Shown here: positions 1 to 61,383 of the stretch, in pieces
Layout of the letters: every line of letters begins with the position of its first letter
Position numbering within the stretch: position 1 is the first letter of the stretch
Assembly (NCBI GenBank): GCA_041662585.1
Contig: JBAZSG010000005.1
Coordinates: 68,181 to 132,180 of the forward strand
Source of the DNA: Patescibacteria group bacterium
Lineage (GTDB): Bacteria > Patescibacteriota > Patescibacteriia > UBA1558 > GWA2-36-10
Length of the DNA: 64,000 bases
Direction of reading: 5' to 3'
Position numbers and translations under genes: made by a program
Notes under the pieces: generated by a model
What the model was told of the DNA's origin: nothing
The model's database searches: none
What the model saw: only the letters and a program-made list of their open reading frames with translations

Positions 1-930
1 AACCCAACTTCTCCGGTGATAGTTGGTTCAGTTGATACACCTAATTATGCTATAGACGTTGTTGTTTCTGATAACTATGCTTATGTGGCAGACATAAGTT
101 CTGGTCTTCAGATCATCGATGTCAGCAATCCAACTTCGCCAACAATAGTTGGTTCAGTTGATACACCGAATAGGGCTTATGAGGTTATTTTAATGAATAA
201 TCTTGTATTGCTAGCTGATCGGTATTCTGGTCTTCAGATCATCGATGTCAGCAATCCAACTTCGCCAACAATAGTTGGTTCAGTTGATACACCACATGAC
301 GCAATGGATCTAGGTGTATTCGGCGATTACGTATGTGTTGCTGATAACAATGCTGGATTAGTAGTCATTTCGTTTGATTGTGCGTTGTATCTGAAAGCGG
401 GCTTTGTTAGTGATGTTATTTCGGGCTCGGTTCCTTTGACAGTTCAGTTTACTGACCAGTCAGTAGGTAATTTCACATCTTGGTTCTGGGATTTTGGTGA
501 TGGTACTACGTCAACTCAGCAAAATCCAAAACACACATATATAGGAGGCGGAAATTGTAACGTTAGTCTGACTGTCAGCGATGGCAATATTACTAACACC
601 AAGACAATTGAAAACTTCATTACAGTCAGAATCAAGAACTTCAAAGACGATCCCAAAATAGAACTAGCTGAAAACTATCCCAACCCTTTTAATCCTAGTA
701 CTACTATTAGTTATTCGTTGCCAACATCGCAACATGTTAGCCTGGTGGTTTATAATATACTAGGTCAAACAGTAACTACTTTAGTAGATGGTATGAAGGA
801 AGCGGGTGAGCATTCAGTAATTTGGGATGGTCGTAATGATCATGGTAGCCCAGTTTCTTCGGGGATGTATTTTTACCGATTAACTACTACCGAGAATTCA
901 ATTGTCCGTAAAATGATCTTACTCAAGTGA
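1..930 (+). CDS. Surface protein, 5'-partial: LVIVD-type repeats, PKD-like domain and T9SS-type C-terminal sorting domain
   Basis: The reading frame is open from base 1; the track's start at 16 is a GTG inside a repeat. Two near-identical ~41-aa repeats (NPTSPTIVGSVDTP..YAYVADISSGLQIIDVS) match the LVIVD beta-propeller pattern. WDFGDGTTS..NPKHTY is PKD-like. The C-terminal ~80 aa (NYPNPFNPSTTISYSLP..GMYFYRL) resembles the Por/T9SS C-terminal sorting domain. Confidence 0.7.
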   Translation, partial: NPTSPVIVGSVDTPNYAIDVVVSDNYAYVADISSGLQIIDVSNPTSPTIVGSVDTPNRAYEVILMNNLVLLADRYSGLQIIDVSNPTSPTIVGSVDTPHDAMDLGVFGDYVCVADNNAGLVVISFDCALYLKAGFVSDVISGSVPLTVQFTDQSVGNFTSWFWDFGDGTTSTQQNPKHTYIGGGNCNVSLTVSDGNITNTKTIENFITVRIKNFKDDPKIELAENYPNPFNPSTTISYSLPTSQHVSLVVYNILGQTVTTLVDGMKEAGEHSVIWDGRNDHGSPVSSGMYFYRLTTTENSIVRKMILLK

Positions 931-3832: not shown

Positions 3833-4816
3833 ATGCCTAAAAATAATAAAAAAATATTTTTGTTTTTAGCCGGAGGTACTTGTATTTTTACAGAAGCTGG
3901 GCATATTTTTTCTGTAAAATCTCAAGATGATATTGAAGATTGGCTGGCTCAGATGCCGGAGTTGAATATTTTGGCTGATATTGAGCCAGTGTTTATCAGT
4001 GGTGAAGACGATTTGATTGGTCCAAATATTTGGCAGACAATAGCCAAGGAGATTATCAAAAGATCTGAAGAAGCCGATGGTTTTGTAATAGTGTCCAAGA
4101 TAGATCAGTTGATAAATACTTCTTTGGCACTGACTTTTGCTTTACAAAATTTGAAAAAAACCATAATTACCACCACCTCCAGAATCAGTGGCAGTAATTT
4201 TATTGATAAAAAAGAAGTTATCAGTAACCTCAAAAATAAATATGGCGGACTTAGTCTCAGATCCAATCTTATCAATGCTATTCAAGTGGCTCAGCAACCA
4301 TTGCCTGCTCCAGCTATTATGTTTGGTACGCGGTTGATAGCAGCTACTAGAGCCATTTTTGATCCACTAGGAGATGTCAATGTTTTTTCCAGTATCAGTG
4401 ATTGTTGGGGTAAGGTTGATTTTGGTATTAATGTCAAATCAAACTTGAAATATAATCAACAAAAAGCCAAAATTTATTCAGACAAATTGGCTGATATTTT
4501 GGTTTTTGATGATATACCAGGCGTACCGTGGTCTTTTGACAGACGAGCACTCACTGCTTATCGTGGTATATTTATCAAAGTAGATTCTTATCAAAAATTG
4601 GGAAAAAACAAGCAAGAGCAAATTATCAAGTGGAAAATGCCAATAGTCTTATATAATTATCACCTGACATCAACTAGTAAGGGAGCAATCAGTGTGTCAA
4701 ATTGTACATTCAATACAGCTCTCATCAAAACAATGTGGGCCTTGAGCAATGAATTCAATAAAAAGGATTTTGAAAATATAATGACCCAAAATATTATTGA
4801 AGAATTTTTAAATTAA
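3833..4816 (+). CDS. Asparaginase/glutaminase-fold protein, probably catalytically degenerate
   Basis: N-terminus IFLFLAGGTCIF aligns to the asparaginase hhxTGGTIA motif. DGFVIVSKIDQLINTSLALTFAL aligns to the GVVITHGTDTLEETAYFL region, but the HGTDT threonine is replaced (SKIDQ). Confidence 0.45.
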   Translation: MPKNNKKIFLFLAGGTCIFTEAGHIFSVKSQDDIEDWLAQMPELNILADIEPVFISGEDDLIGPNIWQTIAKEIIKRSEEADGFVIVSKIDQLINTSLALTFALQNLKKTIITTTSRISGSNFIDKKEVISNLKNKYGGLSLRSNLINAIQVAQQPLPAPAIMFGTRLIAATRAIFDPLGDVNVFSSISDCWGKVDFGINVKSNLKYNQQKAKIYSDKLADILVFDDIPGVPWSFDRRALTAYRGIFIKVDSYQKLGKNKQEQIIKWKMPIVLYNYHLTSTSKGAISVSNCTFNTALIKTMWALSNEFNKKDFENIMTQNIIEEFLN

Positions 4817-9292: not shown

Positions 9293-12136
9293 ATGGATAT
9301 TATTAATTTAGTAATAGCTATTGTTCTATTATCAAACGCCCTGTTAGGTTTTTTTATATATAAAAATAATAGTAGGGCACTTGTTAATAGAAGTTATATT
9401 TTTGTTATTATAACCATATTATTTTGGGGAGTAGGCATGATATTTTATCGCATGGTTGATCAAGAATATGTGACACTATGGTGTAAGTTATTATACACAT
9501 TTGCAACATTTACTACTCCAACTTTTTTAATTTTTTCTTTTATATTTCCAAAAGGGAAATTACCATCAAAAAAAGAGATATTTATAATGGTGATATTTTT
9601 TATTGTTATAAATTATCTAATTTTATTTTCAGATGCTATTATTAGTAGTGCGGAAATTCCTAAACAAGGAGAAAATATTATTCATTTTGGTAATATTTAT
9701 TATTTGTATGTTCTTTATTTTTTTTCACACTTTTTTTATGCTTTTGCTAAGTTATTTTTTAAAATGCGAAAATCTAATGGTGTGCAAAAAGTACAAATTA
9801 AGTATGTTTTTTTAGGTTATTTTATAGCTACAAATTTAGCATTTGCAACAAACTTGACATTACCTTGGGCTGGAATTTTTGTGTATAATTGGGCAGGTCA
9901 AGTTTTAACTATTATCATGGTAGGTTTTACCACTTATGCTATAATAAAATACCGTTTAATGAATATACGACTTATTATCACGCGTAGTATTTTATATGCC
10001 GTATTAGTAGGTGCAGTAGCAGCTTTTTTTGCCCTATCTGTAATAGTAGTCGGTGAATTGATTGGTGGTAATACTAGAAGTAGTAAAATAATTACTTATA
10101 TTGCTACATCATTTATAGTGGTGATATTTTTGGAACCAGTCAAAAGAACTTGGGCCAAACTAACTGATAATATTTTTTATAAAGACAAGGTTGATTATCA
10201 GGAAGTATTGCGTCAAGTAGGTAATGTAGTAGCAAGGGAGATTGATTTATATAAATTATTAAAAGGCACTAGCCAATTATTAGCAGAAAAATTAAAAATC
10301 AAACAAATATCGTCTTTCGTACCAAATACTCAGGGGGAATTTCATCTTTTGGCCAGCTCAGTCAAAAAAGAGCTTGATATAGTTTTAGTCAATGATGTAG
10401 TAAATTATTTGCAAACTAATAAGAGGATTTTAATTGTTGAGGAGTTAATTAGAGATTTGGGTGGGCTAGATGAAAAATTTGAAAAGTATAAGATTTTAGA
10501 TAATTTTGTTAGTAGCGCAGAAAAGCAAAGAATAGAAATGGTAGTGCCGATAGTAGAATCAGATAATTTGACAGCTATATTGATTTTTGATGCTAAACAA
10601 TCAGGTGATCTTTATGCACAGGATGATATAAATTTTTTGGAGTTACTGAGTCCACAGATTGCCACAGCTATTGAAAAATCTAAGCTTTATGAAGAAGTAG
10701 AAGAACTTAATAAAGAATTGCAGAAAAAGGTAGAAGATAGGACCAAGAGTCTCAAAGAGGCCAATATTGCTCTAGAAGATAGAAACAAGTTTTTGACTAC
10801 TATTCAGGTCGTGACCAATAATATTACTCGTACTCTTAACTTGAAAAAGGTCAACCAAATGATTGCTGATAGTATAGCTAGTGAAGTGGGTTATATCGGC
10901 GGTATGCTTAGTTTTGTTGATTCTAGCGGTAAGTATTTAAAAGTAGGAGCTATTACCAACAATGAACAATCTAGAAAAGCTTTTCATATTTTATCTAAAG
11001 AGCCTAGAGATTATGCCACAAAAATAGAAATTGATTACAACTTAGGAGCTCAGACTTTTTTGACCGGCAAGATAAATTTTTCTGACAAGCTGTCCGATTT
11101 CCTTTGTCCGCCAGTTGATAAAAAGGAAATAGAGGAGATTCAGCAGATATTGGGTATAAAAACCATAGTGGGTATACCGGTATTTTCAGAGGCCAAAATT
11201 ATCGGCGTGATTCATTTTTATTTGGCAGTTAAGCGAGAAAAAATATCTTCTCTAGATATAGAGATTATGACAGCTTTGGCCAACCAAGTTGGTATAGTGT
11301 TTCGTAACCTAAAATTATACAATACTTTGCAGGGTGCCAATGCTGAACTTCAAGATGCCAATACCAAACTTAGAGAATTGGATAAAGCCAAATCAGAGTT
11401 TTTGTCAATTGCGTCACACCAATTGCGTACACCAATTTCAGCTATCAAAGGTTATCTTTCTATGATTATTGATGGTGATTTTGGTAAAATACCCAAAAGC
11501 ATTGATGAGGTAATTAGAAATATATTTGAAAGCTCAGCTCGTTTGGCTAGGCTTATAAATATTTTCTTAAATGTCAGTCGTATTGAGTCTGGTAGATTAA
11601 AATTGGATAAAAGACCAATTCAGATAAATGATTTGATAAAAGGGGTTATTGTTGAGCTTATCAATCAAGCCAAACAAAAAGGATTGAAACTGGAATATAA
11701 GAAAAAGAAACAAGATCCACCACTTATTTTTGCTGATGCTGATAAACTGAGAGAAGTAGTGCTTAATTTGATAGACAACGCTATCAAATATACCCCAGAA
11801 GGCTCTATTATCGTGACAGTAGATTCAGATGATAAGGAATTAAATTTTAGAGTAAAAGATACTGGTATTGGTATTAAAAAAGAAGAGGCCAAATCATTGT
11901 TTAGAAAATTTGTCAGAGGCTCTGGTGTAGCTCAAATTCATACTGGAGGCTCTGGATTGGGATTGTTTATTGCTCAAAAGATTATCAAAGAACATGATGG
12001 TATGGTATGGGCTGAGAGCGAAGGTAGTGGCAAAGGGTCTTTGTTTCAATTTACTATTCCTGTTTATAAAAAGCATGATGTGCCAGCTTATAAAGAAGAA
12101 GCAAAAGAAGGTATGTCTTCTGACTTGTCCTCATAA
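9293..12136 (+). CDS. Sensor histidine kinase (7TM N-terminal domain, GAF domains, coiled coil, HisKA, HATPase_c)
   Basis: N-terminal multi-TM region homologous to the standalone 7TM genes. H-box SHQLRTPISAIKGY. C-terminal ATPase G-boxes GIGIKKEE / GGSGLGL. Confidence 0.9.
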   Translation: MDIINLVIAIVLLSNALLGFFIYKNNSRALVNRSYIFVIITILFWGVGMIFYRMVDQEYVTLWCKLLYTFATFTTPTFLIFSFIFPKGKLPSKKEIFIMVIFFIVINYLILFSDAIISSAEIPKQGENIIHFGNIYYLYVLYFFSHFFYAFAKLFFKMRKSNGVQKVQIKYVFLGYFIATNLAFATNLTLPWAGIFVYNWAGQVLTIIMVGFTTYAIIKYRLMNIRLIITRSILYAVLVGAVAAFFALSVIVVGELIGGNTRSSKIITYIATSFIVVIFLEPVKRTWAKLTDNIFYKDKVDYQEVLRQVGNVVAREIDLYKLLKGTSQLLAEKLKIKQISSFVPNTQGEFHLLASSVKKELDIVLVNDVVNYLQTNKRILIVEELIRDLGGLDEKFEKYKILDNFVSSAEKQRIEMVVPIVESDNLTAILIFDAKQSGDLYAQDDINFLELLSPQIATAIEKSKLYEEVEELNKELQKKVEDRTKSLKEANIALEDRNKFLTTIQVVTNNITRTLNLKKVNQMIADSIASEVGYIGGMLSFVDSSGKYLKVGAITNNEQSRKAFHILSKEPRDYATKIEIDYNLGAQTFLTGKINFSDKLSDFLCPPVDKKEIEEIQQILGIKTIVGIPVFSEAKIIGVIHFYLAVKREKISSLDIEIMTALANQVGIVFRNLKLYNTLQGANAELQDANTKLRELDKAKSEFLSIASHQLRTPISAIKGYLSMIIDGDFGKIPKSIDEVIRNIFESSARLARLINIFLNVSRIESGRLKLDKRPIQINDLIKGVIVELINQAKQKGLKLEYKKKKQDPPLIFADADKLREVVLNLIDNAIKYTPEGSIIVTVDSDDKELNFRVKDTGIGIKKEEAKSLFRKFVRGSGVAQIHTGGSGLGLFIAQKIIKEHDGMVWAESEGSGKGSLFQFTIPVYKKHDVPAYKEEAKEGMSSDLSS

Positions 12137-15342: not shown

Positions 15343-16908
15343 ATGTCAAATATAAAAAAAACAAATTTACCACTGTTACTTTTGATACTAGATGGTTGGG
15401 GTATTTGGAACAAAAAGAAAGGCAATGCTATTGCCAAAGCTAAGACACCAGTCATAGATAGTCTTTACAAAAAATATCCCAATACATTATTACAAGCTTC
15501 ATCCAAAGATGTTGGCTTACCAAGTGGTCAACCAGGTAATTCAGAGGCTGGCCATATGAATATTGGTGCTGGACGAGTAGTAGAGCAAGACGCAGTGATA
15601 ATATCCAAAAGTATAAACAATGGCACCTTTTTTAAAAATCCAGCTTTTTTACAAGCGGCTCGACATGCTACAGAAAATAACTCAGATATACATTTGATGG
15701 GCTTGCTTTCAGATGGCTCTAGTCCTCATTCAGACAATGATCATCTTTTGGCTTTGCTTAGTTTTTTTATAAGTCGTACTAAACAAAATATTTATCTTCA
15801 TTTTTTTACTGATGGTCGTGATTCACCCCAGTTTGCTGCTCTAAAAGTACTTAGTCAATATGTTAGTATTTTTGATACCAATAGAGTAAAAGTTGCGACT
15901 ATTATGGGTCGTTTTTATGCTATGGATCGAAAAAAATCATGGACCAGGACAAAACTAGCTTTTGATGCTCTGGCCAGAGGAAAGGGTAATACAGCTACCA
16001 GCCCAGTAGAAGCTATCAATACGGCCTACAACAGAGGCGAGAGTGATGAGTTTATAAAACCTTGTGTTATAGTAGATGCCAAGAAAAAACCAATTGGACC
16101 CATAAAGACCAATGACTCTTTGATTTTTTTCAATCTTAGATCTGATAGAGCTAGGCAGTTGACCAAAGTTTTTGCTCAGAATGATTTTTTCAAAAAAAAC
16201 CAAAAGTCTTTTAAGTTGGGCAAAAAAATAGACAATTTATTATTTGTCGCTTTGACTGATTTTGGACCTGACTTGGAAAGAGTGCTGACAGCTTATCCGG
16301 GTATTGATATTGCTGATACTTTACCAATGACTTTAAAGGATTTGAGGCAATGTTATATTTCAGAAACAGAAAAGTATGCTCATGTTACATATTTTTTTAA
16401 CGGCGGTTATGATCATTCATTAGCAGGAGAGGATTGGATAAATATTCCCTCCAAAAATGTAGCTTCTTATGCCGAAGCACCAGAGATGAGTACCAATGAA
16501 ATCGCCAATCGGATAATTTTGGATCTCAAAAATGATAAATATGATTTTGTTTTAGCCAATTTCGCTGCACCAGATATGGTAGGGCACACTGGCGATTTAA
16601 AAGCTGGTATCAAAGCAGTAGAAGTCGTGGATAAGGCAGTAGGTGAACTAGTCAAAACTATTTTGGCCAAAGACGGCACAATTATTATTACTGCCGATCA
16701 TGGTAATGTAGAAGAAATGATCAATTTAAAAACAGATGAAATAGATACTGAGCATTCTACCAATCCAGTACCTTTTGTTATTGTAAATCATCATAATTTT
16801 AAATTAATAAAAAATGGTAAGTTGGCCAATATTGCTCCAACTGTTTTAGATATATTAAATATAAAAAAATCTCGGTTGATGACTGAGAAAAGCTTAATTA
16901 TCAAATAA
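15343..16908 (+). CDS. gpmI: 2,3-bisphosphoglycerate-independent phosphoglycerate mutase (copy 1)
   Basis: LILDGWGI, catalytic-Ser context GNSEAGH, VTYFFNGG, DMVGHTG, TADHGN. Confidence 0.88.
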   Translation: MSNIKKTNLPLLLLILDGWGIWNKKKGNAIAKAKTPVIDSLYKKYPNTLLQASSKDVGLPSGQPGNSEAGHMNIGAGRVVEQDAVIISKSINNGTFFKNPAFLQAARHATENNSDIHLMGLLSDGSSPHSDNDHLLALLSFFISRTKQNIYLHFFTDGRDSPQFAALKVLSQYVSIFDTNRVKVATIMGRFYAMDRKKSWTRTKLAFDALARGKGNTATSPVEAINTAYNRGESDEFIKPCVIVDAKKKPIGPIKTNDSLIFFNLRSDRARQLTKVFAQNDFFKKNQKSFKLGKKIDNLLFVALTDFGPDLERVLTAYPGIDIADTLPMTLKDLRQCYISETEKYAHVTYFFNGGYDHSLAGEDWINIPSKNVASYAEAPEMSTNEIANRIILDLKNDKYDFVLANFAAPDMVGHTGDLKAGIKAVEVVDKAVGELVKTILAKDGTIIITADHGNVEEMINLKTDEIDTEHSTNPVPFVIVNHHNFKLIKNGKLANIAPTVLDILNIKKSRLMTEKSLIIK

Positions 16909-16933: not shown

Positions 16934-18511
16934 ATGACAAGACCTCGCCCTGTAGCCCTCATAATATTAGATGGTTTTGGTATTGCTCCAGCTTCTAGAG
17001 CAAATGCTATTTCTTTGGCCAAAACACCAAATTTTGATAAATATTCTCAAAATTATCCCATAATGCCACTAGCTGCTAGTGGTGAAGCAGTTGGTCTTTC
17101 TTGGGGTGAAATGGGCAATTCTCAAGTAGGTCATCTTTCTTTGGGCTCAGGTGTTATTCCTTATCAAAATTTACCTCGTATTACCAAGGCTATTAATGAT
17201 GGAGAATTTTATAAAAACGAAACCTTTATCAAGGCTTGTGACATTGCCAAGCAAGGTGAGGCAGCTCTACACATTATTGGTTTGGTAAGCTCAGGAGGTA
17301 TTCATAGTTACAATGAGCATTTGTATGCTTTGATAGATTTGGCTCATCAGCAAAAAGTAGAAAGACTTTATATTCATGCTTTTTTAGATGGGCGTGATAC
17401 ACCTTACAATAGTGGTCTTAATTTTATTGCCAAATTGGAAGAAAAACTTAAACAAGTTGGTATCGGGACTATTGCCAGTTTAAGTGGTCGTTTTTGGGCC
17501 ATGGATAGAGATAATCGTTGGGATAGGATAGCCAAAGCTTGGCAAGCTATGGTTGATGGAGAATCTACAAACAAATTTAAAGATCCGCTCGTTGCTATAC
17601 AAAAATCTTATGATAAAAAAATCTACGATGAAGAATTTGAACCAACGGTTATATTAAATGATTTAGAAAAACCAAAAGGTAATATCAAAGATGGTGATAG
17701 TGTCATATTTTTTAATTTTAGATCAGATAGAGCTCGTCAGCTTACGCAAGCTTTTGTTTTACCTGGTTTTGAAAAATTCAAAAGACCATATTTTAAAAAA
17801 CTTTTTATGGTGACTATGATTGAATATGAAAAAGATTTGCCACTGACAGTAGCTTTTCCTCCCCTAAGTATAAATATGCCTTTAGCTAGGGTATTATCTG
17901 AAGCTGGTCTCAAACAATTACATATTGCCGAGACAGAAAAATATGCCCATGTTACTTATTTTTTTAATGGTGGTAACGAAACAATATACGAAGGGGAAGA
18001 TAGATTGCTGATACCTTCGCCTCAAGTGACTTCTTATGATCAAAAACCAGCTATGTCAGCTAGAGAAGTGACTTCAAAAATAAATCAAGCTGTCAAGGAG
18101 GGTAAATATGATTTTATTGTGGCCAATTATGCCAATCCAGATATGGTGGGGCACACTGGCAATATGCAGGCGACTATTGAGGCTATAGAGATATTGGATC
18201 AACTAGTTGGAGAGGTAGTAGATACTGTCTTATCTTATAATGGATTGGTATTAATTACAGCTGACCATGGTAATGCCGAAAAGCTTTATGATTTGCAAAG
18301 TGGAGAAATCAACAAGACGCATTCCAACAATCCAGTACCACTTTTTATTATTGGGGATGATTTTGTTGGCAAAAGCGTTTTGGCTGGTAATGTTGGTACG
18401 GATATTAGTCATGTAACACCGGTAGGAGTATTGGCTGATGTACCACCAACAATATTAAAAATTATGGGTATCAAAAAACCAGCCGAGATGACTGGTAGTT
18501 CATTGATTTAA
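16934..18511 (+). CDS. gpmI: 2,3-bisphosphoglycerate-independent phosphoglycerate mutase (copy 2, divergent tandem paralog)
   Basis: IILDGFGIA, GNSQVGH, VTYFFNGG, DMVGHTG, TADHGN. Confidence 0.88.
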   Translation: MTRPRPVALIILDGFGIAPASRANAISLAKTPNFDKYSQNYPIMPLAASGEAVGLSWGEMGNSQVGHLSLGSGVIPYQNLPRITKAINDGEFYKNETFIKACDIAKQGEAALHIIGLVSSGGIHSYNEHLYALIDLAHQQKVERLYIHAFLDGRDTPYNSGLNFIAKLEEKLKQVGIGTIASLSGRFWAMDRDNRWDRIAKAWQAMVDGESTNKFKDPLVAIQKSYDKKIYDEEFEPTVILNDLEKPKGNIKDGDSVIFFNFRSDRARQLTQAFVLPGFEKFKRPYFKKLFMVTMIEYEKDLPLTVAFPPLSINMPLARVLSEAGLKQLHIAETEKYAHVTYFFNGGNETIYEGEDRLLIPSPQVTSYDQKPAMSAREVTSKINQAVKEGKYDFIVANYANPDMVGHTGNMQATIEAIEILDQLVGEVVDTVLSYNGLVLITADHGNAEKLYDLQSGEINKTHSNNPVPLFIIGDDFVGKSVLAGNVGTDISHVTPVGVLADVPPTILKIMGIKKPAEMTGSSLI

Positions 18512-26590: not shown

Positions 26591-26660
26591 TTTGCTCTTA
26601 GTATAAGCTATTGCTAACGACTTTCGTCTAATCGCTCTTAGCTTATACTATTCGCAAACA
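26591..26660 (+). ncRNA. Structured intergenic repeat element, copy A (family I)
   Basis: Perfect 12-bp inverted repeat TAGTATAAGCTA / TAGCTTATACTA enclosing an inner GAC-TTTC-GTC hairpin. Homologous copy at 48868 has compensatory changes in both stems. Confidence 0.55.
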
Positions 26661-30482: not shown

Positions 30483-31748
30483 ATGCATAAGATATTACAT
30501 TTTATCTTAAAAATACTAGCCAAAGCTGTTATTGCTAAATATAAACCAAAAGTGATTGGTATTACTGGTTCAGTTGGTAAAACATCGGCCAAAGAAGCCA
30601 TTGCTGTTGTTTTGCGAGCCAAATTTAATACTAGAGCTGCTAGTAAAAATTTTAATAATGAAGTTGGCACTCCACTTACCATTTTGGGTTGTCAAAGTTC
30701 TCCAGGTAAAAATATATTGGCTTGGTGCTGGGTATTTGTTTTGGCTATAAAATTATTGCTTATTAAAGATAAAAATTATCCGCAGGTATTGGTTTTGGAG
30801 ATGGGAGCTGACAAAGTAGGCGATATTAAATATCTTACATCCATTGCTCGTTTAGATGTGGGAGTTATCACAGCTATTGGTTCTAGTCATATTGAGTTTT
30901 TTAAAACTATGGATAATATTATAAAAGAAAAAAGCTCTATTTTAAATAATTTAACTAAAGATAATTTGGCAGTATTGAATAATGATGATCCAAATTTAGT
31001 CAAAGTAATTGCCAATTGTAAAAGTAAATTATTGACTTATGGTAAGTCAGAAAATTCTAATATTAGAATTTCAGATATCAGTATAATTAAAAGAGATGAT
31101 AGCTACGGTACTAATTTTAAATTAAATTATAAAGGTTCTGAAGTGCCTATGTTTTTGCCATATGTTTTGGGTTGGCAACATGCTCATGCTGCTGCTAGTG
31201 CTACAGCCGTGGCACTGCACTTGGGTATGAATTTGGTAGAGATTGGAAACAAATTATTGGAATATAGGCCAGCCAAAGGTAGGACAAATTTGATAAAGGG
31301 TATTAAAGATACTTGGATAATTGATGATACTTACAATGCTTCTCCTCAGTCTGCTAAGGTGGCTTTGGATATTTTGATGGAAATACCCATAGCTGGAAGG
31401 AAAATAGCAGTATTGGGGGATATTTTGGAGCTTGGAGCACTGAGTGAAGCAAGTCACCAGGAAGTAGGTAGAGAGTTGACTCGTTTGGGAGTTGAATATT
31501 TGTTTGTCGTAGGGGAGAGATCACGTGATATTGCCAGAGGTGCCAGAGAAGCTGGTATGAATAAAGACAATATATATCATTTTCCATATACCAAAGAAGC
31601 TGGTATATTTTTGCAAGAAAAATTACAGGCCAATGATGTTGTATTGGTCAAAGGTTCTCGTGGTGCCAAAATGGAGCAAATAGTATATGAGATTATGGCT
31701 AAACCATGGTTGGCCAAAGATTTGTTAGTGGGACCAGTAGTTAAATAG
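30483..31748 (+). CDS. murF: UDP-N-acetylmuramoyl-tripeptide--D-alanyl-D-alanine ligase
   Basis: P-loop GITGSVGKTSAKE and DDTYNASPQS motif of the Mur ligase family. Position after ftsI suggests murF (murE is absent here). Confidence 0.75.
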   Translation: MHKILHFILKILAKAVIAKYKPKVIGITGSVGKTSAKEAIAVVLRAKFNTRAASKNFNNEVGTPLTILGCQSSPGKNILAWCWVFVLAIKLLLIKDKNYPQVLVLEMGADKVGDIKYLTSIARLDVGVITAIGSSHIEFFKTMDNIIKEKSSILNNLTKDNLAVLNNDDPNLVKVIANCKSKLLTYGKSENSNIRISDISIIKRDDSYGTNFKLNYKGSEVPMFLPYVLGWQHAHAAASATAVALHLGMNLVEIGNKLLEYRPAKGRTNLIKGIKDTWIIDDTYNASPQSAKVALDILMEIPIAGRKIAVLGDILELGALSEASHQEVGRELTRLGVEYLFVVGERSRDIARGAREAGMNKDNIYHFPYTKEAGIFLQEKLQANDVVLVKGSRGAKMEQIVYEIMAKPWLAKDLLVGPVVK

Positions 31749-31756
31749 TATTTTTA

Positions 31757-31823
31757 TTGCGAAAAATCTGCATCAGATGCGACTTTGCGTAGCAACGGAG
31801 CAGTCGATGCAGAGTATGAGCAA
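31757..31823 (+). ncRNA. Structured intergenic repeat element, copy 1 (family II)
   Basis: 8-bp stem TCTGCATC / GATGCAGA enclosing a conserved 31-nt core AGATGCGACTTTGCGTAGCAACGGAGCAGTC. Copies at 38634 (+) and 60601 (-) covary in the stem. Confidence 0.55.
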
Positions 31824-31884
31824 TTAATATAAAGTTTAAATAGCTTGACTATTAGCTAAATGTTTGTTAAAAATATGTTTTTTA

Positions 31885-31973: not shown

Positions 31974-31997
31974 AGAACTGCTTGAGGGCAGTTTTTA
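31974..31997. terminator. Bidirectional terminator between tRNA-Glu and the convergent 32000 gene
   Basis: AACTGC-ttgagg-GCAGTT followed by TTTTAT. Confidence 0.55.
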
Positions 31998-38558: not shown

Positions 38559-38633
38559 TTAGTTAAAATGTAAAATACGGAGATTAGTATATATATTTTT
38601 GTCTATATTGTCAATATAAGCAAATGTTTTATT

Positions 38634-38700
38634 TGCGAATATCCTGCATTAGATGCGAATTTGCGGAGCAACGGAGCAATCTATGTAGGATGTGAGCAAA
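38634..38700 (+). ncRNA. Structured intergenic repeat element, copy 2 (family II)
   Basis: Stem TCCTGCAT / ATGTAGGA (one G-U; T-A replaced by C-G relative to copy 1) around the conserved core AGATGCGAATTTGCGGAGCAACGGAGCAATC. Confidence 0.55.
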
Positions 38701-38712
38701 AATTAAAGCTTA

Positions 38713-40533
38713 TTACATCACATCTGGAGCTTCAATGCCCAACAAAGCCAAACCATCTTTTAATACTTTTTTTGTAAGTTGAGAAATATTTAGTCTGATT
38801 TGTTTTGTATTTTCATCATCAGCCTTTAAAACACTATGTTGTTGGTAAAAATTATTGTATGTTTTGGCCACATCAAATAAGTATTGAGTCACCAGAGATG
38901 GATTTTGATTGCTAGCTGAATTTTTAATAGTATCTGGAAAAGCTAATAATAATTTAACTAGTTTTTTTTCTTCTTTATTAAAATTGAAGTTTTCTATTTT
39001 AGAGATGTCATTTATTTTGGTAGCCTTTTTTAGCATATTGGATATTCGGGCGTGAGTATATTGTATAAAAGTGCCAGTATAGCCATCAAAAGAAATAGAT
39101 TCAGCTGGTTTGAAAATTATATTTTTTTGAGGATTGGTAGAGAGCATAAAAAATTTAAGAGCTCCAATACCAACAATGCTAGCAATATCTTTGTCTTTCG
39201 CCAAGGCTTTGGACGACACGTCTTTTTGTTTAGTAGAATTATTTATTATTTCTTTGGCTTGATCGATCATAGTAGCTATCAATGCATCAGCATCAGCTGT
39301 TTTTCCTTCACGTGATTTTATTTTTCCACCCGGTAAAGAAATCATACCATATGATAAATGGTAGAGATTTTTGGCCCAGGCATAGCCTAGTTTTTTCAAA
39401 ATTAAAAATAATACTTTAAAATGATATTCTTGTTCATTGCCAACTACATAAATAGCTTGGTCAAATTTAAATTTTTTGTATCTTCTTTTGGCAGTCCCTA
39501 GATCTTGGGTTATATATACTGAAGTACCATCAGAACGGAGAACTAGTTTTTCATCTAGGCCATCACTACTTAGATCTATCCAGACGGAGCCATCTTCTTT
39601 TTTAAAGAAGACTTTTTTCTTTAGACCTTCGGCCACTATATCTTTACCTAGTAGATAAGTATCTGATTCAAAATCTAAATGATCAAATTCAATACCTAAA
39701 TCATGATATGTTTTGTCATAGCCTGTATAGACCCAATCATTCATAGTTTTCCAAAGTTGTTTTATTTGTGGATCATTGTCTTCCCAAGCTAGGAGTATAG
39801 CTCTAGCTTTGTTCATCCACTTGGATTGAGCCAAAAATTCTTCTTCGGCTTTTTTTCTAGTTAGATTATCTAGATTTTCAAGTTTTATATTTTTTGAAGC
39901 ATAATATTTTTCAGCTTCTTCTTTGAGTACTTGTCCAAATTTTACATAATATTTTCCTACTAGATGATCGCCCTTGATGCCAGATGAGCTGGGTGTTTCT
40001 CCATTGGCAAACTCTTGCCAAGCTAGCATGCTTTTTACAATATGAATACCACGATCGTTTATAATATTTACAGCAGTAGTTTTATGACCACTGGCTTTGA
40101 AAATATTTACCAATGCCTGACCAATACAATCGTTTCGGACATGTCCAACATGTTGAGGTTTGTTGGTATTTGGTCCGGAAAATTCAATCAATACTTTTTT
40201 GTTTTGACCATATTTGCTTTGACCAAATTTTTTGTTTTTTGATATTTCAGCAATAGCCTCTTTGATAAAATCATTATTAACAAAAATATTTAAATATGGT
40301 CCAAAGTTTTTTACTTTTCCTATGTATTGATTGGTTTTGTATTTATCAGATAATTCCTTGGCAATACTAGCTGGAGTTTTATTTAGCTTTTTGGCCAAAG
40401 CAAAACAAGGAAAAGCATAATCTCCTAGCTCTTCTTGAGGGGGAATATCTAAATCAAAATCATCTATATTTTCTTGGTAAATAGAGTTTAGATTGAATTT
40501 TATATTTTGTTTGATTTCATTGATTATATCCAT
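38713..40533 (-). CDS. argS: Arginine--tRNA ligase
   Basis: HIGH-type motif PQHVGHVRN; DALR anticodon-binding C-terminus; 606 aa. Confidence 0.9.
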   Translation of the reverse strand: MDIINEIKQNIKFNLNSIYQENIDDFDLDIPPQEELGDYAFPCFALAKKLNKTPASIAKELSDKYKTNQYIGKVKNFGPYLNIFVNNDFIKEAIAEISKNKKFGQSKYGQNKKVLIEFSGPNTNKPQHVGHVRNDCIGQALVNIFKASGHKTTAVNIINDRGIHIVKSMLAWQEFANGETPSSSGIKGDHLVGKYYVKFGQVLKEEAEKYYASKNIKLENLDNLTRKKAEEEFLAQSKWMNKARAILLAWEDNDPQIKQLWKTMNDWVYTGYDKTYHDLGIEFDHLDFESDTYLLGKDIVAEGLKKKVFFKKEDGSVWIDLSSDGLDEKLVLRSDGTSVYITQDLGTAKRRYKKFKFDQAIYVVGNEQEYHFKVLFLILKKLGYAWAKNLYHLSYGMISLPGGKIKSREGKTADADALIATMIDQAKEIINNSTKQKDVSSKALAKDKDIASIVGIGALKFFMLSTNPQKNIIFKPAESISFDGYTGTFIQYTHARISNMLKKATKINDISKIENFNFNKEEKKLVKLLLAFPDTIKNSASNQNPSLVTQYLFDVAKTYNNFYQQHSVLKADDENTKQIRLNISQLTKKVLKDGLALLGIEAPDVM

Positions 40534-48867: not shown

Positions 48868-48938
48868 TAATTGCTCCTAGTCTAAGCTATCGTTAACGGC
48901 CTTCGCCTAATCACTCTTAGCTTAGACTACTCGCAATA
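48868..48938 (+). ncRNA. Structured intergenic repeat element, copy B (family I)
   Basis: Perfect 12-bp inverted repeat TAGTCTAAGCTA / TAGCTTAGACTA and inner GGC-CTTC-GCC hairpin. Both stems differ from copy A by paired compensatory substitutions. Confidence 0.55.
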
Positions 48939-60032: not shown

Positions 60033-60593
60033 ATGAAAAAAAACTCTTTATCCATTTTGGAATCATTGTTTTTGGCAGCTGGTAAGGCACTTACTTATAA
60101 AGAAGTGACCAAACTAATAGATTGCAACGAAGAACAACTTAAGCAATTGTTAGCTGAGTTAAAAGAAAAATATAACAAAGAAGATAGTGGTATTCATATT
60201 TTGGATAATAATCAAAAAATCCAATTTGTCTCTAATCCAGAAAATATAAGTGTGCTAAAAGAATATTTCCATGATGAGTTTAGTGGTGAACTTAGCAAAC
60301 CATCTTTGGAAACCTTGACTATTATTGCTTATCGTCAACCAATAAGTAAAGAAGAATTGGAGCAAATCAGGGGAGTAAATTGTGCTATGATTATTCGCAA
60401 TTTGCTTATCAGAGGACTGATTGAAGAAAGTTCAGACAAGGATAGTCTATCTACCAATTATGCGGTTACTATGGATTTTTTGAAATATATGGGTATTGCT
60501 AGTGTCCAAGATTTACCAGATTATGAAAAACTAAATAGTGATGAAAATTTACAAAAGCTTTTAGAAGATAGTGAGGATAATAAAGATTCATAA
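60033..60593 (+). CDS. scpB: Segregation and condensation protein B
   Basis: Tandem winged-helix ScpB (LESLFLAAGKALTYKE.., TLTIIAYRQPISKEELEQIRGV). Confidence 0.85.
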   Translation: MKKNSLSILESLFLAAGKALTYKEVTKLIDCNEEQLKQLLAELKEKYNKEDSGIHILDNNQKIQFVSNPENISVLKEYFHDEFSGELSKPSLETLTIIAYRQPISKEELEQIRGVNCAMIIRNLLIRGLIEESSDKDSLSTNYAVTMDFLKYMGIASVQDLPDYEKLNSDENLQKLLEDSEDNKDS

Positions 60594-60600
60594 AATATTA

Positions 60601-60668
60601 TTACTCGTATCTGCACCGATTGCTCCGTTGCTACGCAAAGTCGCATCTGGCGCAGAATACTCGTAATT
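60601..60668 (-). ncRNA. Structured intergenic repeat element, copy 3 (family II, inverted orientation)
   Basis: Reverse complement reads TCTGCGCC-AGATGCGACTTTGCGTAGCAACGGAGCAATC-GGTGCAGA; stem contains a compensatory C-G relative to copy 1. Confidence 0.55.
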
Positions 60669-60678
60669 TATAACATTA

Positions 60679-61383
60679 ATGAAGATAGAAAAGAAACTTA
60701 AAAATACAATGCGTTTGGCCAAATTTTTGGCTGAAGCAGGTATTGCTTCACGACGTAAATCAGAAGAGTTGATTAGAACTGCTCAGGTCAAAATAGCTGG
60801 TCAAATAGTCGATAATGTAGCTACCAATGTATCGCTTGATCAAGATGACATTACAGTAAATGGCCAAAAGATTTCACTTGATAAAAAAGTTTATTTTTTA
60901 TTAAACAAACCAAAAGGTTATATTTCTTCAGTCAGTGATCCTCACAATACCAAAACAGCAGTATCTTTGTTGCCAAAAAACCCTAGAGTATTTCCTGTAG
61001 GCAGACTAGATATGGATTCATCCGGATTGCTATTGCTTACAAATGATGGAGAATTGACTTATCGTTTAACTCATCCCAAATTTGAAATAAAAAAAACTTA
61101 TGTAGCTACAGTCAATAAAAAATTAGACAAAAATATTGTAGCTATTCTTAAACAAGGCATTAAATTACCAGAAGGGTTAGCCAAGGCTGATAAAGCCAGA
61201 ATATTAAATGATTATCAATTGGAAATAGTAATTCATCAAGGTTGGAATAGACAAATACGACGTATGCTAGGAGCAGAGGGTTTACGCGTGACAGAGCTAA
61301 AAAGAATAGCAGAGGGTAAACTGAAGTTAGATGATTTAGCCAGTGGTGAATATAAAGTATTAAAATTACAAGATATTTTATGA
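60679..61383 (+). CDS. Pseudouridine synthase (RsuA/RluB family) with S4 domain
   Basis: S4 RNA-binding N-terminus (MRLAKFLAEAGIASRRKSEELI) and catalytic GRLDMDSSGLLLLTNDGEL. Confidence 0.88.
   Translation: MKIEKKLKNTMRLAKFLAEAGIASRRKSEELIRTAQVKIAGQIVDNVATNVSLDQDDITVNGQKISLDKKVYFLLNKPKGYISSVSDPHNTKTAVSLLPKNPRVFPVGRLDMDSSGLLLLTNDGELTYRLTHPKFEIKKTYVATVNKKLDKNIVAILKQGIKLPEGLAKADKARILNDYQLEIVIHQGWNRQIRRMLGAEGLRVTELKRIAEGKLKLDDLASGEYKVLKLQDIL

Follow-up and report, generated by a model that had tools for sequence, protein, structure and literature searches.

Among the described systems closest to the repeat family reported here are the RIB/RIP-type BIMEs, in which a conserved IHF-binding center lies between two inverted REPs. 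REPs themselves sit past coding regions, between unidirectional or convergent genes, and vary in presence between relatives (PMC3733652; PMC3184786). The binding of gyrase and IHF to BIMEs is cited in PMC3184786. In plastid spacers, such as trnH-psbA, a segment between short inverted repeats occurs in both orientations in related genomes (PMC2903610; PMC6824564).

The stretch of DNA analyzed here, 64,000 nucleotides in length and referred to as the window, derives from a host that is an uncultivated Komeilibacteria-like or related CPR (Patescibacteria) bacterium. CPR/Patescibacteria genomes are tiny and their non-coding elements are little known; proliferating hairpin repeats are present nonetheless. 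The window carries three copies of one such repeat, termed Family II, and two hairpins of a second family, Family I. We lean toward the view that Family II comprises lineage-specific, dispersed, imperfect intergenic palindromes of the REP/MITE kind that are kept as 3′UTR or intercistronic hairpins and whose tip is recognized in trans. Loci outside the window are cited below by L numbers.

Results

Copies of Family II and Their Neighbors

The degenerate 31-mer AGATGCGMMTTTGCGKAGCAACGGAGCARTC has exactly three matches in the window, at 31775-31805 and 38651-38681 on the plus strand and at 60618-60648 on the minus strand, compared with a match in none of 100 dinucleotide-preserving shuffled controls. 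The three copies proposed in an initial annotation of this DNA are thus real, the gene neighbors that it gave for all three are correct, and the flanking 8-bp stems that it described are present, though as part of longer helices. The elements are as follows.

31756-31824, plus strand: Family II copy 1, P0 to P0 (covariance model 99 bits, folding, and core match)
31756-31760 with 31820-31824, plus strand: copy 1 P0, ATTGC with GCAAT
31767-31774 with 31806-31813, plus strand: copy 1 P1, TCTGCATC with GATGCAGA
31775-31805, plus strand: copy 1 apical core
38632-38700, plus strand: Family II copy 2, P0 TTTGC with GCAAA, core 38651-38681
~38639-38649 with 38683-38693, plus strand: copy 2 P1
60600-60667, minus strand: Family II copy 3, P0 ATTAC with GTAAT, core 60618-60648

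Copy 1 has a Mur ligase gene on one side and tRNA-Glu on the other. Copy 2, which is antisense to argS, lies between argS and tRNA-Lys, with the argS stop codon (38713-38715) on one side and the tRNA-Lys promoter (38614-38586, minus strand) on the other. Copy 3 fills the spacer from the scpB stop codon (60591-60593) to the start of a pseudouridine synthase gene. A fourth copy is found in the tpiA-fba spacer, 2.2 kb outside the window (L013:12212-12289, minus strand), and the covariance model detects no additional Family II copy in the window, in the 10 kb to its left, or in the 9 kb to its right. Family II and Family I together amount to 4 + 2 copies in ~83 kb of the window genome. The Family II element spans ~69 bp from P0 to P0 (unit ~69-90 bp), has a GC content of 33-43% and AT-rich flanks, and contains no ORF; every copy begins ~2-30 nt past a stop codon. 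The association with tRNA genes suggested in the initial annotation reflects insertion between a stop codon and the following promoter, with no link to tRNA as such.

Architecture and Covariation of the Hairpin

Copies 1-3 each fold into one long hairpin, with energies of -27, -29.4, and -30 kcal/mol and z-scores of -3.8 to -6.1. From the outside in, the rod is composed of P0, a GA-rich internal loop, P1, P2, tandem G·A pairs, a C-G pair, a U·C mismatch, P3, and a GNA triloop. P0 is ATTGC/GCAAT, with a compensated G-C to A-U change in copy 3 (ATTAC/GTAAT), and the GA-rich basal internal loop that follows it reads 5′-GAR ... GA-3′. P1 comprises 8-11 bp and differs in sequence in each paralog, P2 is GAUGC/GCAnUC, and P3 is UUGC/GCAA. 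The G-N-A triloop that caps P3 occurs as GTA, GGA, or GAA across copies, its central N corresponding to the variable K of the earlier consensus. The 31-nt core had been described as a single-stranded loop; it is itself helical, containing P2, the tandem G·A pairs, the C-G pair, P3, and the triloop, and it forms the apical third of a ~70-nt rod of ~30 bp.

Across nine distinct sequences, 94.7% of the cells are paired and double-sided changes are observed at 14 of 23 pairs. In the slid control, in which the 3′ partner is shifted by 1-3 columns, only 30-51% of the cells are paired and double changes occur at 1-4 pairs. The proposal that the repeats form a genuine family, with covarying stems around a core that is conserved, is supported. 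P2 and P3 show no variation among intact copies. The pairing in P2 and P3 is supported despite this invariance because a variant in L020 carries four C-G to U-A swaps, in P0, P1, P2, and P3, and keeps the fold (-23.4 kcal/mol, z = -6.9).

Family I and Other Hairpins

A search for TTGCGA-N35-65-GAGCAA returns four elements, compared with 0.12 expected: Family II copies 1 and 2 and two hairpins of Family I, which are listed here.

26592-26657, minus strand: Family I hairpin A, same base and length, GAAA loop (model 35 bits)
48871-48936, minus strand: Family I hairpin B (model 43 bits), compensated changes in P1, P2, and P3 relative to copy A

Hairpin A lies in the 3′UTR of a 142-aa ORF, upstream of the terminator of that ORF and of mraZ, and hairpin B lies in an 86-nt spacer between a nuoF-like gene and a [FeFe]-hydrogenase gene. 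Family I hairpins are 66-67 nt long, have P0 and the basal loop in common with Family II, and contain a 12-bp P1. Their apical domain differs from that of Family II and is closed by a GNRA loop (GAAA or GAAG). The Family II covariance model detects both Family I hairpins in the same orientation. A regular-expression and folding screen of the window, its flanks, and the relatives' DNA reveals no further subfamily on the shared base.

Other hairpins are observed in the relatives. A small hairpin family at L001:7553-7580, L018:~11935-11958, and L019:~11945-11972 combines varying stems (CCCGC/GCGGG or CCATCC/GGATGG) with a 14-nt loop that is conserved as GTAGCTTTAGCGAA or its complement, a pattern of conserved loop and free stem like that of Family II. 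Upstream of tRNA-Lys, at L018:11860-12033, two partial copies of the tRNA 5′ end are found with palindromes between them, e.g., CTACCTGCCTGCCGGCAGGCAGGTAG; the arrangement of these duplicates suggests repeated hairpin insertions with target duplication. At L023:9880-10000, L024:4139-4201, and L019:2227-2280, unrelated hairpins occupy the slots of Family I and Family II elements of the window genome. In other species, the tpiA-fba slot contains a CCCYGTTARA...TYTAACRGGG hairpin (L023 and L024), and the nuoF-hydA slot contains a CCTTTGTCAAGGG...CCCTTGACAAAGGG hairpin.

Insertion Polymorphism and Target Duplication

For comparison with empty sites, the argS-centered 21.8-kb regions of L018 and L019 were used, each of which has 77% ArgS identity and is syntenic with window 29-50 kb. 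Neither of these orthologous regions contains a copy. All in-window copies lack a counterpart at the orthologous sites of relatives: L018 and/or L019 are without copies 1 and 2 and both Family I copies, and L002 and L020-L024 are without copy 3. At copy 1, with a slash marking the junction, the empty sites read ...gtcaaaTAG/CTTGACT in L018 and ...gttaaaTAA/CTTGACT in L019, that is, a single target copy and then CTTGACT directly. The window reads ...gTTAAATAG(tattttt-hairpin-taatataaagt)TTAAATAG/CTTGACT. The insertion at copy 1 is ~87 bp with a clean 8-bp target duplication, TTAAATAG, anchored by the two empty sites.

31741-31748, plus strand: left TTAAATAG copy, which includes the Mur ligase stop codon TAG (31746-31748)
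31836-31843, plus strand: right TTAAATAG copy, which abuts the tRNA-Glu promoter -35 (TTGACT, 31845-31850)

The boundaries of this insert lie 7 and 11 nt outside P0 and are thus asymmetric, and boundaries differ from copy to copy. Inverted repeats are formed by P0 (ATTGC/GCAAT) and by the AT-rich extensions. The empty site of copy 2 in relatives reads atgTAAt/ATTGACAATA, the window being ~97 bases longer there, and comparison of copy 2 with the empty sites gives no clear target duplication. At the site of copy 3, six relatives have scpB either abutting or overlapping the pseudouridine synthase gene; through the insertion, scpB acquired a new C-terminus and a new stop codon. A GAAGATAG repeat at 60564-60571 and 60681-60688 flanks copy 3 and mimics a target duplication; it was rejected as one, the two occurrences being probably ancestral Glu-Asp codon motifs of the scpB tail, as judged from the six relatives. 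At the site of Family I copy B, the two genes of L018 overlap in ATGA and the target duplication is ambiguous. The site of Family I copy A in L019 has a spacer 63 nt shorter, with no copy. When flanks are shuffled, 10-20% of trials yield direct repeats of 7-8 nt. Only the duplication at copy 1 is counted, because repeats of this length are common in shuffled flanks and copy 1 is anchored by two empty sites.

The empty sites are without stems, and therefore the whole hairpin came in as the insert. A mobile core landing in pre-existing palindromes, which would account for variable stems with no need for compensation, was rejected, as no trace of a stem is present at the empty sites. These comparisons show that the family gained new copies when a complete hairpin inserted after a stop codon and ahead of the following promoter or start codon.

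No candidate for a transposase, RAYT, nuclease, or other mobilizing gene is found in the window or the fetched flanks (~83 kb). The genes in this region are housekeeping genes (glycolysis, the dcw cluster, aminoacyl-tRNA synthetases, and hydrogenase). Tandem paralogs of cofactor-independent phosphoglycerate mutase, at window 15343-16908 and 16934-18511, follow pgk and eno. At window 1-315, 126-nt tandem repeats (75-100% identical) lie within the 3′ portion of a gene encoding a large surface protein that has Peptidase_M23, PKD, and LVIVD domains.

Two Layers of Constraint and the Resident tpiA-fba Copy

Independent paralogs (copies 1-4 and L001) are 92.9% identical in the apical domain, 51.5% in P1, and 53.8% in the basal loop. 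The L001 copy, from a distant Komeilibacteria genome, matches the 31-nt core exactly, carries it on an unrelated 11-bp stem, and is without the TTGCGA base. The unpaired and mismatched bases of the apical domain (the G·A pairs and the U·C mismatch) show no variation among either paralogs or orthologs. These identity contrasts lead to the conclusion that selection acts on the hairpin itself at each locus and, additionally, on the sequence of the tip across the family. The L020/L022 lineage has undergone GC-to-AT changes, with the loop changing from GUA to AACA. Judged from these substitutions, the constraint on tip sequence is relaxed in this lineage and the constraint on the hairpin persists.

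The Family II element of the tpiA-fba spacer is orthologous in five genomes: the window genome, L008, the L004 species, L020, and L022. It is on the minus strand in all of these except the L004 species, where it is on the plus strand. All five genomes have a common P1 type, and the copies of L020 and L022 are AT-shifted variants. The site is empty in L021, in which the tpiA stop codon overlaps the fba ATG, and in one further genome, which has a 9-nt spacer; L023 and L024 have an unrelated hairpin instead. Stand-alone genes for a GIY-YIG nuclease domain, 79-88 aa in length, are observed at L013:14264-14521, L004:4265-4531, and L008:3609-3848 and 4083-4346. These genes adjoin tRNA-Tyr, ~2 kb downstream of the tpiA-fba element, with two copies in L008.

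Among L004, L008, and the window genome, the tpiA-fba element is 88-94% identical, compared with 58-67% at third codon positions of tpiA and fba. Within the element, P0 and P1 are 93% identical, the apical domain 98%, and the basal loop 62%; the flanks are ~50% identical. The inner 49 nt of the L004 copy are the exact reverse complement of those of L008 (49/49). The bases between P1 and P0 do not place the flip breakpoints, as 15 of 20 positions fit the flipped arrangement and 13 of 20 fit the unflipped arrangement. At the level of sequence comparison, these data show that the resident copy is under purifying selection for the hairpin and is tolerant of inversion, because the identity of the element exceeds that of the third codon positions and the inversion in L004 is exact.

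Were the family no more than the neutral, passive leftover of a mobile element that recently multiplied, with a core conserved merely through youth, its lineage-specific expansion and low copy number would fit. Set against this explanation, the stems of paralogs are ~50% identical compared with 93% for the core, the identical core in L001 sits on an unrelated stem, conservation of the orthologous copy far exceeds that of synonymous sites, and the changes in L020 are compensated; we regard a neutral remnant as very improbable.

Strand, Transcription, and RNA versus DNA

The initial annotation had argued from G-U wobbles that transcription proceeds in one orientation. Four wobbles are found on that strand compared with two on the complement, both of the latter in L022, and the argument is not robust. 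On the core-sense strand, the internal loops are all purine-rich, with tandem G·A pairs and GNA or GNRA loops, whereas the complement would give U·C/C·U. RNA folds on the core-sense strand are 4-10 kcal/mol more stable than those on the complement. As DNA, both strands fold, at -9 to -14.5 kcal/mol, with modest z-scores. Mini-hairpins of the d(GCGNAGC) type and tandem sheared G·A pairs are very stable in DNA. On the mRNA-sense strand, the basal arm reads AUUGCUCNUA (complement of 31756-31765, complement of 38691-38700, and L013:12217-12226). The arm AUUGCUCNUA faintly resembles boxA (GCUCUUUA), presumably by chance.

No promoter-like sites facing the copies and no terminators after the copies are found. 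A role as an intrinsic terminator was rejected, as no element is called in either orientation, and canonical terminators are present nearby at 31974-31995 and 38435-38422. Most copies run antisense to their neighboring gene, occupying ~85-nt spacers in apparent operons. Orientation is not significantly tied to transcription: independent insertions number one in sense and ~6 in antisense, and one ortholog is flipped. A tie between orientation and replication was rejected, as both strands carry copies although the GC skew stays positive throughout the window.

Template-switch correction can itself generate paired changes in a DNA palindrome with no selection acting on RNA. Such correction does not explain the conservation above synonymous sites, nor does it explain the mismatches that persist. 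RNA and DNA are not separable by covariation, because the element is also a DNA palindrome.

In the initial annotation, the copies were viewed as small non-coding RNA genes or as cis-acting RNA sites for protein binding on the core-sense strand. On such a reading, the GA-rich internal loops and the GNA/GNRA loops would build a platform for a protein. The purine-rich loops of the core-sense strand, the better RNA folds (by 4-10 kcal/mol), the GNRA tetraloops on the corresponding strand of Family I, and the strong covariation are consistent with such RNAs. The small RNA or processing signal proposed there is not supported: the copies have no facing promoter and no terminator following them, they fill 85-nt operon spacers and do so mostly in antisense, the orthologous sites are empty, and the tpiA-fba copy is inverted, without its flanks, yet conserved. 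In addition, the wobbles number four versus two, and covariation in a DNA palindrome is ambiguous, as template-switch correction is possible. Small RNA genes or RNA protein-binding sites of this kind are, in our estimate, distinctly unlikely.

A DNA-level element would form a cruciform or single-stranded fold, the apical hairpin of which would be bound or cut by a structure-specific protein, making the orientation of transcription irrelevant. Candidates would include a transposase of the HUH/Y1 type, a different nuclease, or a protein of the nucleoid or of DNA topology; gyrase and IHF acting at the BIMEs of Escherichia coli provide the analogy. The exact inversion of an orthologous copy in L004, with 49 of 49 nt kept, argues for such an element, as do the unpaired and mismatched positions, which are invariant and never "corrected" to perfect palindromes. 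Either strand can fold as DNA, with mini-hairpin and sheared G·A stability in favor, and the insertion polymorphism and the one target duplication imply DNA transactions. Arguing in the other direction, there is no candidate enzyme nearby, orientation is not tied to replication direction, a GTAG/CGTC tag of the REP/RAYT type is absent, and the DNA folding z-scores are modest. We consider a DNA-level element rather unlikely overall, though it merits the most weight among the alternatives to REP/MITE-like palindromes kept as hairpins.

Host Range and Database Searches

A scan for the core in genome and metagenome collections yields few true matches, all of which are in Candidatus Komeilibacteria or Patescibacteria assemblies: L001 (= L005), L002 (= L004 = L011 = L012), and L008. 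The remaining matches were rejected as chance hits in GC-rich DNA. Large contigs of the relatives (534, 549, and 860 kb) carry a single intact-core locus apiece. Viral contigs, phages, and plasmids contain no match to the element, and a phage, plasmid, or virus origin was rejected on the basis of those collections. In an Rfam scan of the whole window at gathering thresholds, only tRNAs and the L10 leader pass, and copy 1 and Family I copy B, when scanned permissively against Rfam, yield chance-level matches only (E > 3); the earlier failure to place the element in a known Rfam family holds after both kinds of scan. A literature search for the core sequence returns unrelated primer matches only, and the literature on CPR repeats yields general REP and MITE papers only. 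As far as could be found, the element has not been described before.

Discussion

Family II, as we are inclined to read it, is a family of REP/MITE-like palindromes that insert after genes and are kept as hairpins with a recognized tip. The basal module (ATTGC-GAR ... GA-GCAAT) is shared by the two families, P1 is free to change as long as pairing holds, and the apical module is strongly conserved. The host role may be that of a structural hairpin in 3′UTRs or intercistronic RNA, serving as a site of 3′-end protection, processing, or insulation, as for REPs. Within the apical module, those unpaired and non-canonical positions that are conserved could provide the recognition surface for a putative trans-acting protein, which might be an element-mobilizing enzyme or a nucleic-acid-binding protein of the host.

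Several observations weigh against this reading of Family II as REP/MITE-like hairpins. There is no mobilizing gene in the window or its fetched flanks, a clean target duplication is seen at one insertion only, and the copy number is low. The distance from the duplication to the hairpin is asymmetric and the termini are undefined. Ordinary MITEs and REPs lack an invariant center on free stems. A function at the DNA level, or one transcribed independently, would account for the invariant unpaired bases and for the conservation of an inverted copy as well as, or better than, a passive hairpin in mRNA.

The invariant apical fold on changing stems offers a handle for finding the protein partner and hence the mode of movement or the role of the element. 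A bolder proposal is that the apical 31-nt module is a ligand-like fold for a putative CPR protein that acts in either orientation, in a hairpin-guided DNA or RNA transaction of a new kind; this we hold to be unlikely. If true, it would point to a new single-strand transposition or inversion system or to a modular class of structured ncRNA, with interchangeable Family I and Family II heads on a common base. A resident copy can stay under strong selection while flipped. In addition, the same slots (tpiA-fba, nuoF-hydA, and tRNA-adjacent) are filled by different hairpin families in different species, which suggests that intercistronic hairpins are generally needed or tolerated. Unless the partner protein proves to be new, the practical impact is modest.

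Comparison with Known Systems

Comparisons extend to integron attC sites, hairpin and hammerhead ribozymes, SRP RNA, K-turns, parS, ssoA, and boxA/nut-like sites, the features of which we take not to fit those of Family II. Identity to a known repetitive extragenic palindrome with no transcript had been named in the initial annotation as a ground against its proposal. The resemblance part of that statement comes close to the evidence.

Similar to the REPs and BIMEs of Proteobacteria, Family II elements are short imperfect palindromes that follow coding regions, between unidirectional or convergent genes, in either orientation and are present or absent among relatives. They would plausibly be transcribed as 3′UTR hairpins, and several families can occur per genome. 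Position downstream of coding regions agrees with that of REPs, and size, GC content, and copy number do not: Family II elements are ~69 bp compared with 20-40 bp for REPs, they are AT-rich with GA mismatches whereas REPs are GC-rich, and their copy number is low, with no RAYT gene seen in the fetched regions. Family II also lacks the unpaired GTAG/CGTC tag of REPs (PMC3733652), GTAG occurring only within some triloops and at a variable position. In Family II, the hairpin tip is conserved and the stem is free; in REPs, the reverse is observed. The RIB/RIP BIMEs are similar in having a conserved center within inverted repeats that is a possible protein-binding site, an analogy that may extend to Family II. 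There is no sequence similarity between the two, and the arms of Family II are not themselves a conserved repeat.

The flip between L004 and L008 at the same locus is reminiscent of the small inversions of plastids. Plastid flips are mutations at neutral hairpins, whereas here a conserved structured module inverts.

MITEs, including Correia/NEMIS, RUP, ERIC, and the Bacillus bcr repeats, share with Family II a length of <200 bp, a non-coding nature, and a long stem-loop. Additional points of resemblance are insertion polymorphism, the one 8-bp target duplication, and putative inverted-repeat ends, here common to two families (definition in PMC3184786). By that definition, Family II is short, has no transposase gene, forms a long stem-loop (-23 to -30 kcal/mol), and shows presence and absence at orthologous sites. 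The main differences are that the termini are undefined, that a target duplication is seen at one copy only, that no parent insertion sequence or transposase is known for Family II, and that in Family II the internal sequence, not the ends, is most conserved, with a resident copy under strong purifying selection.
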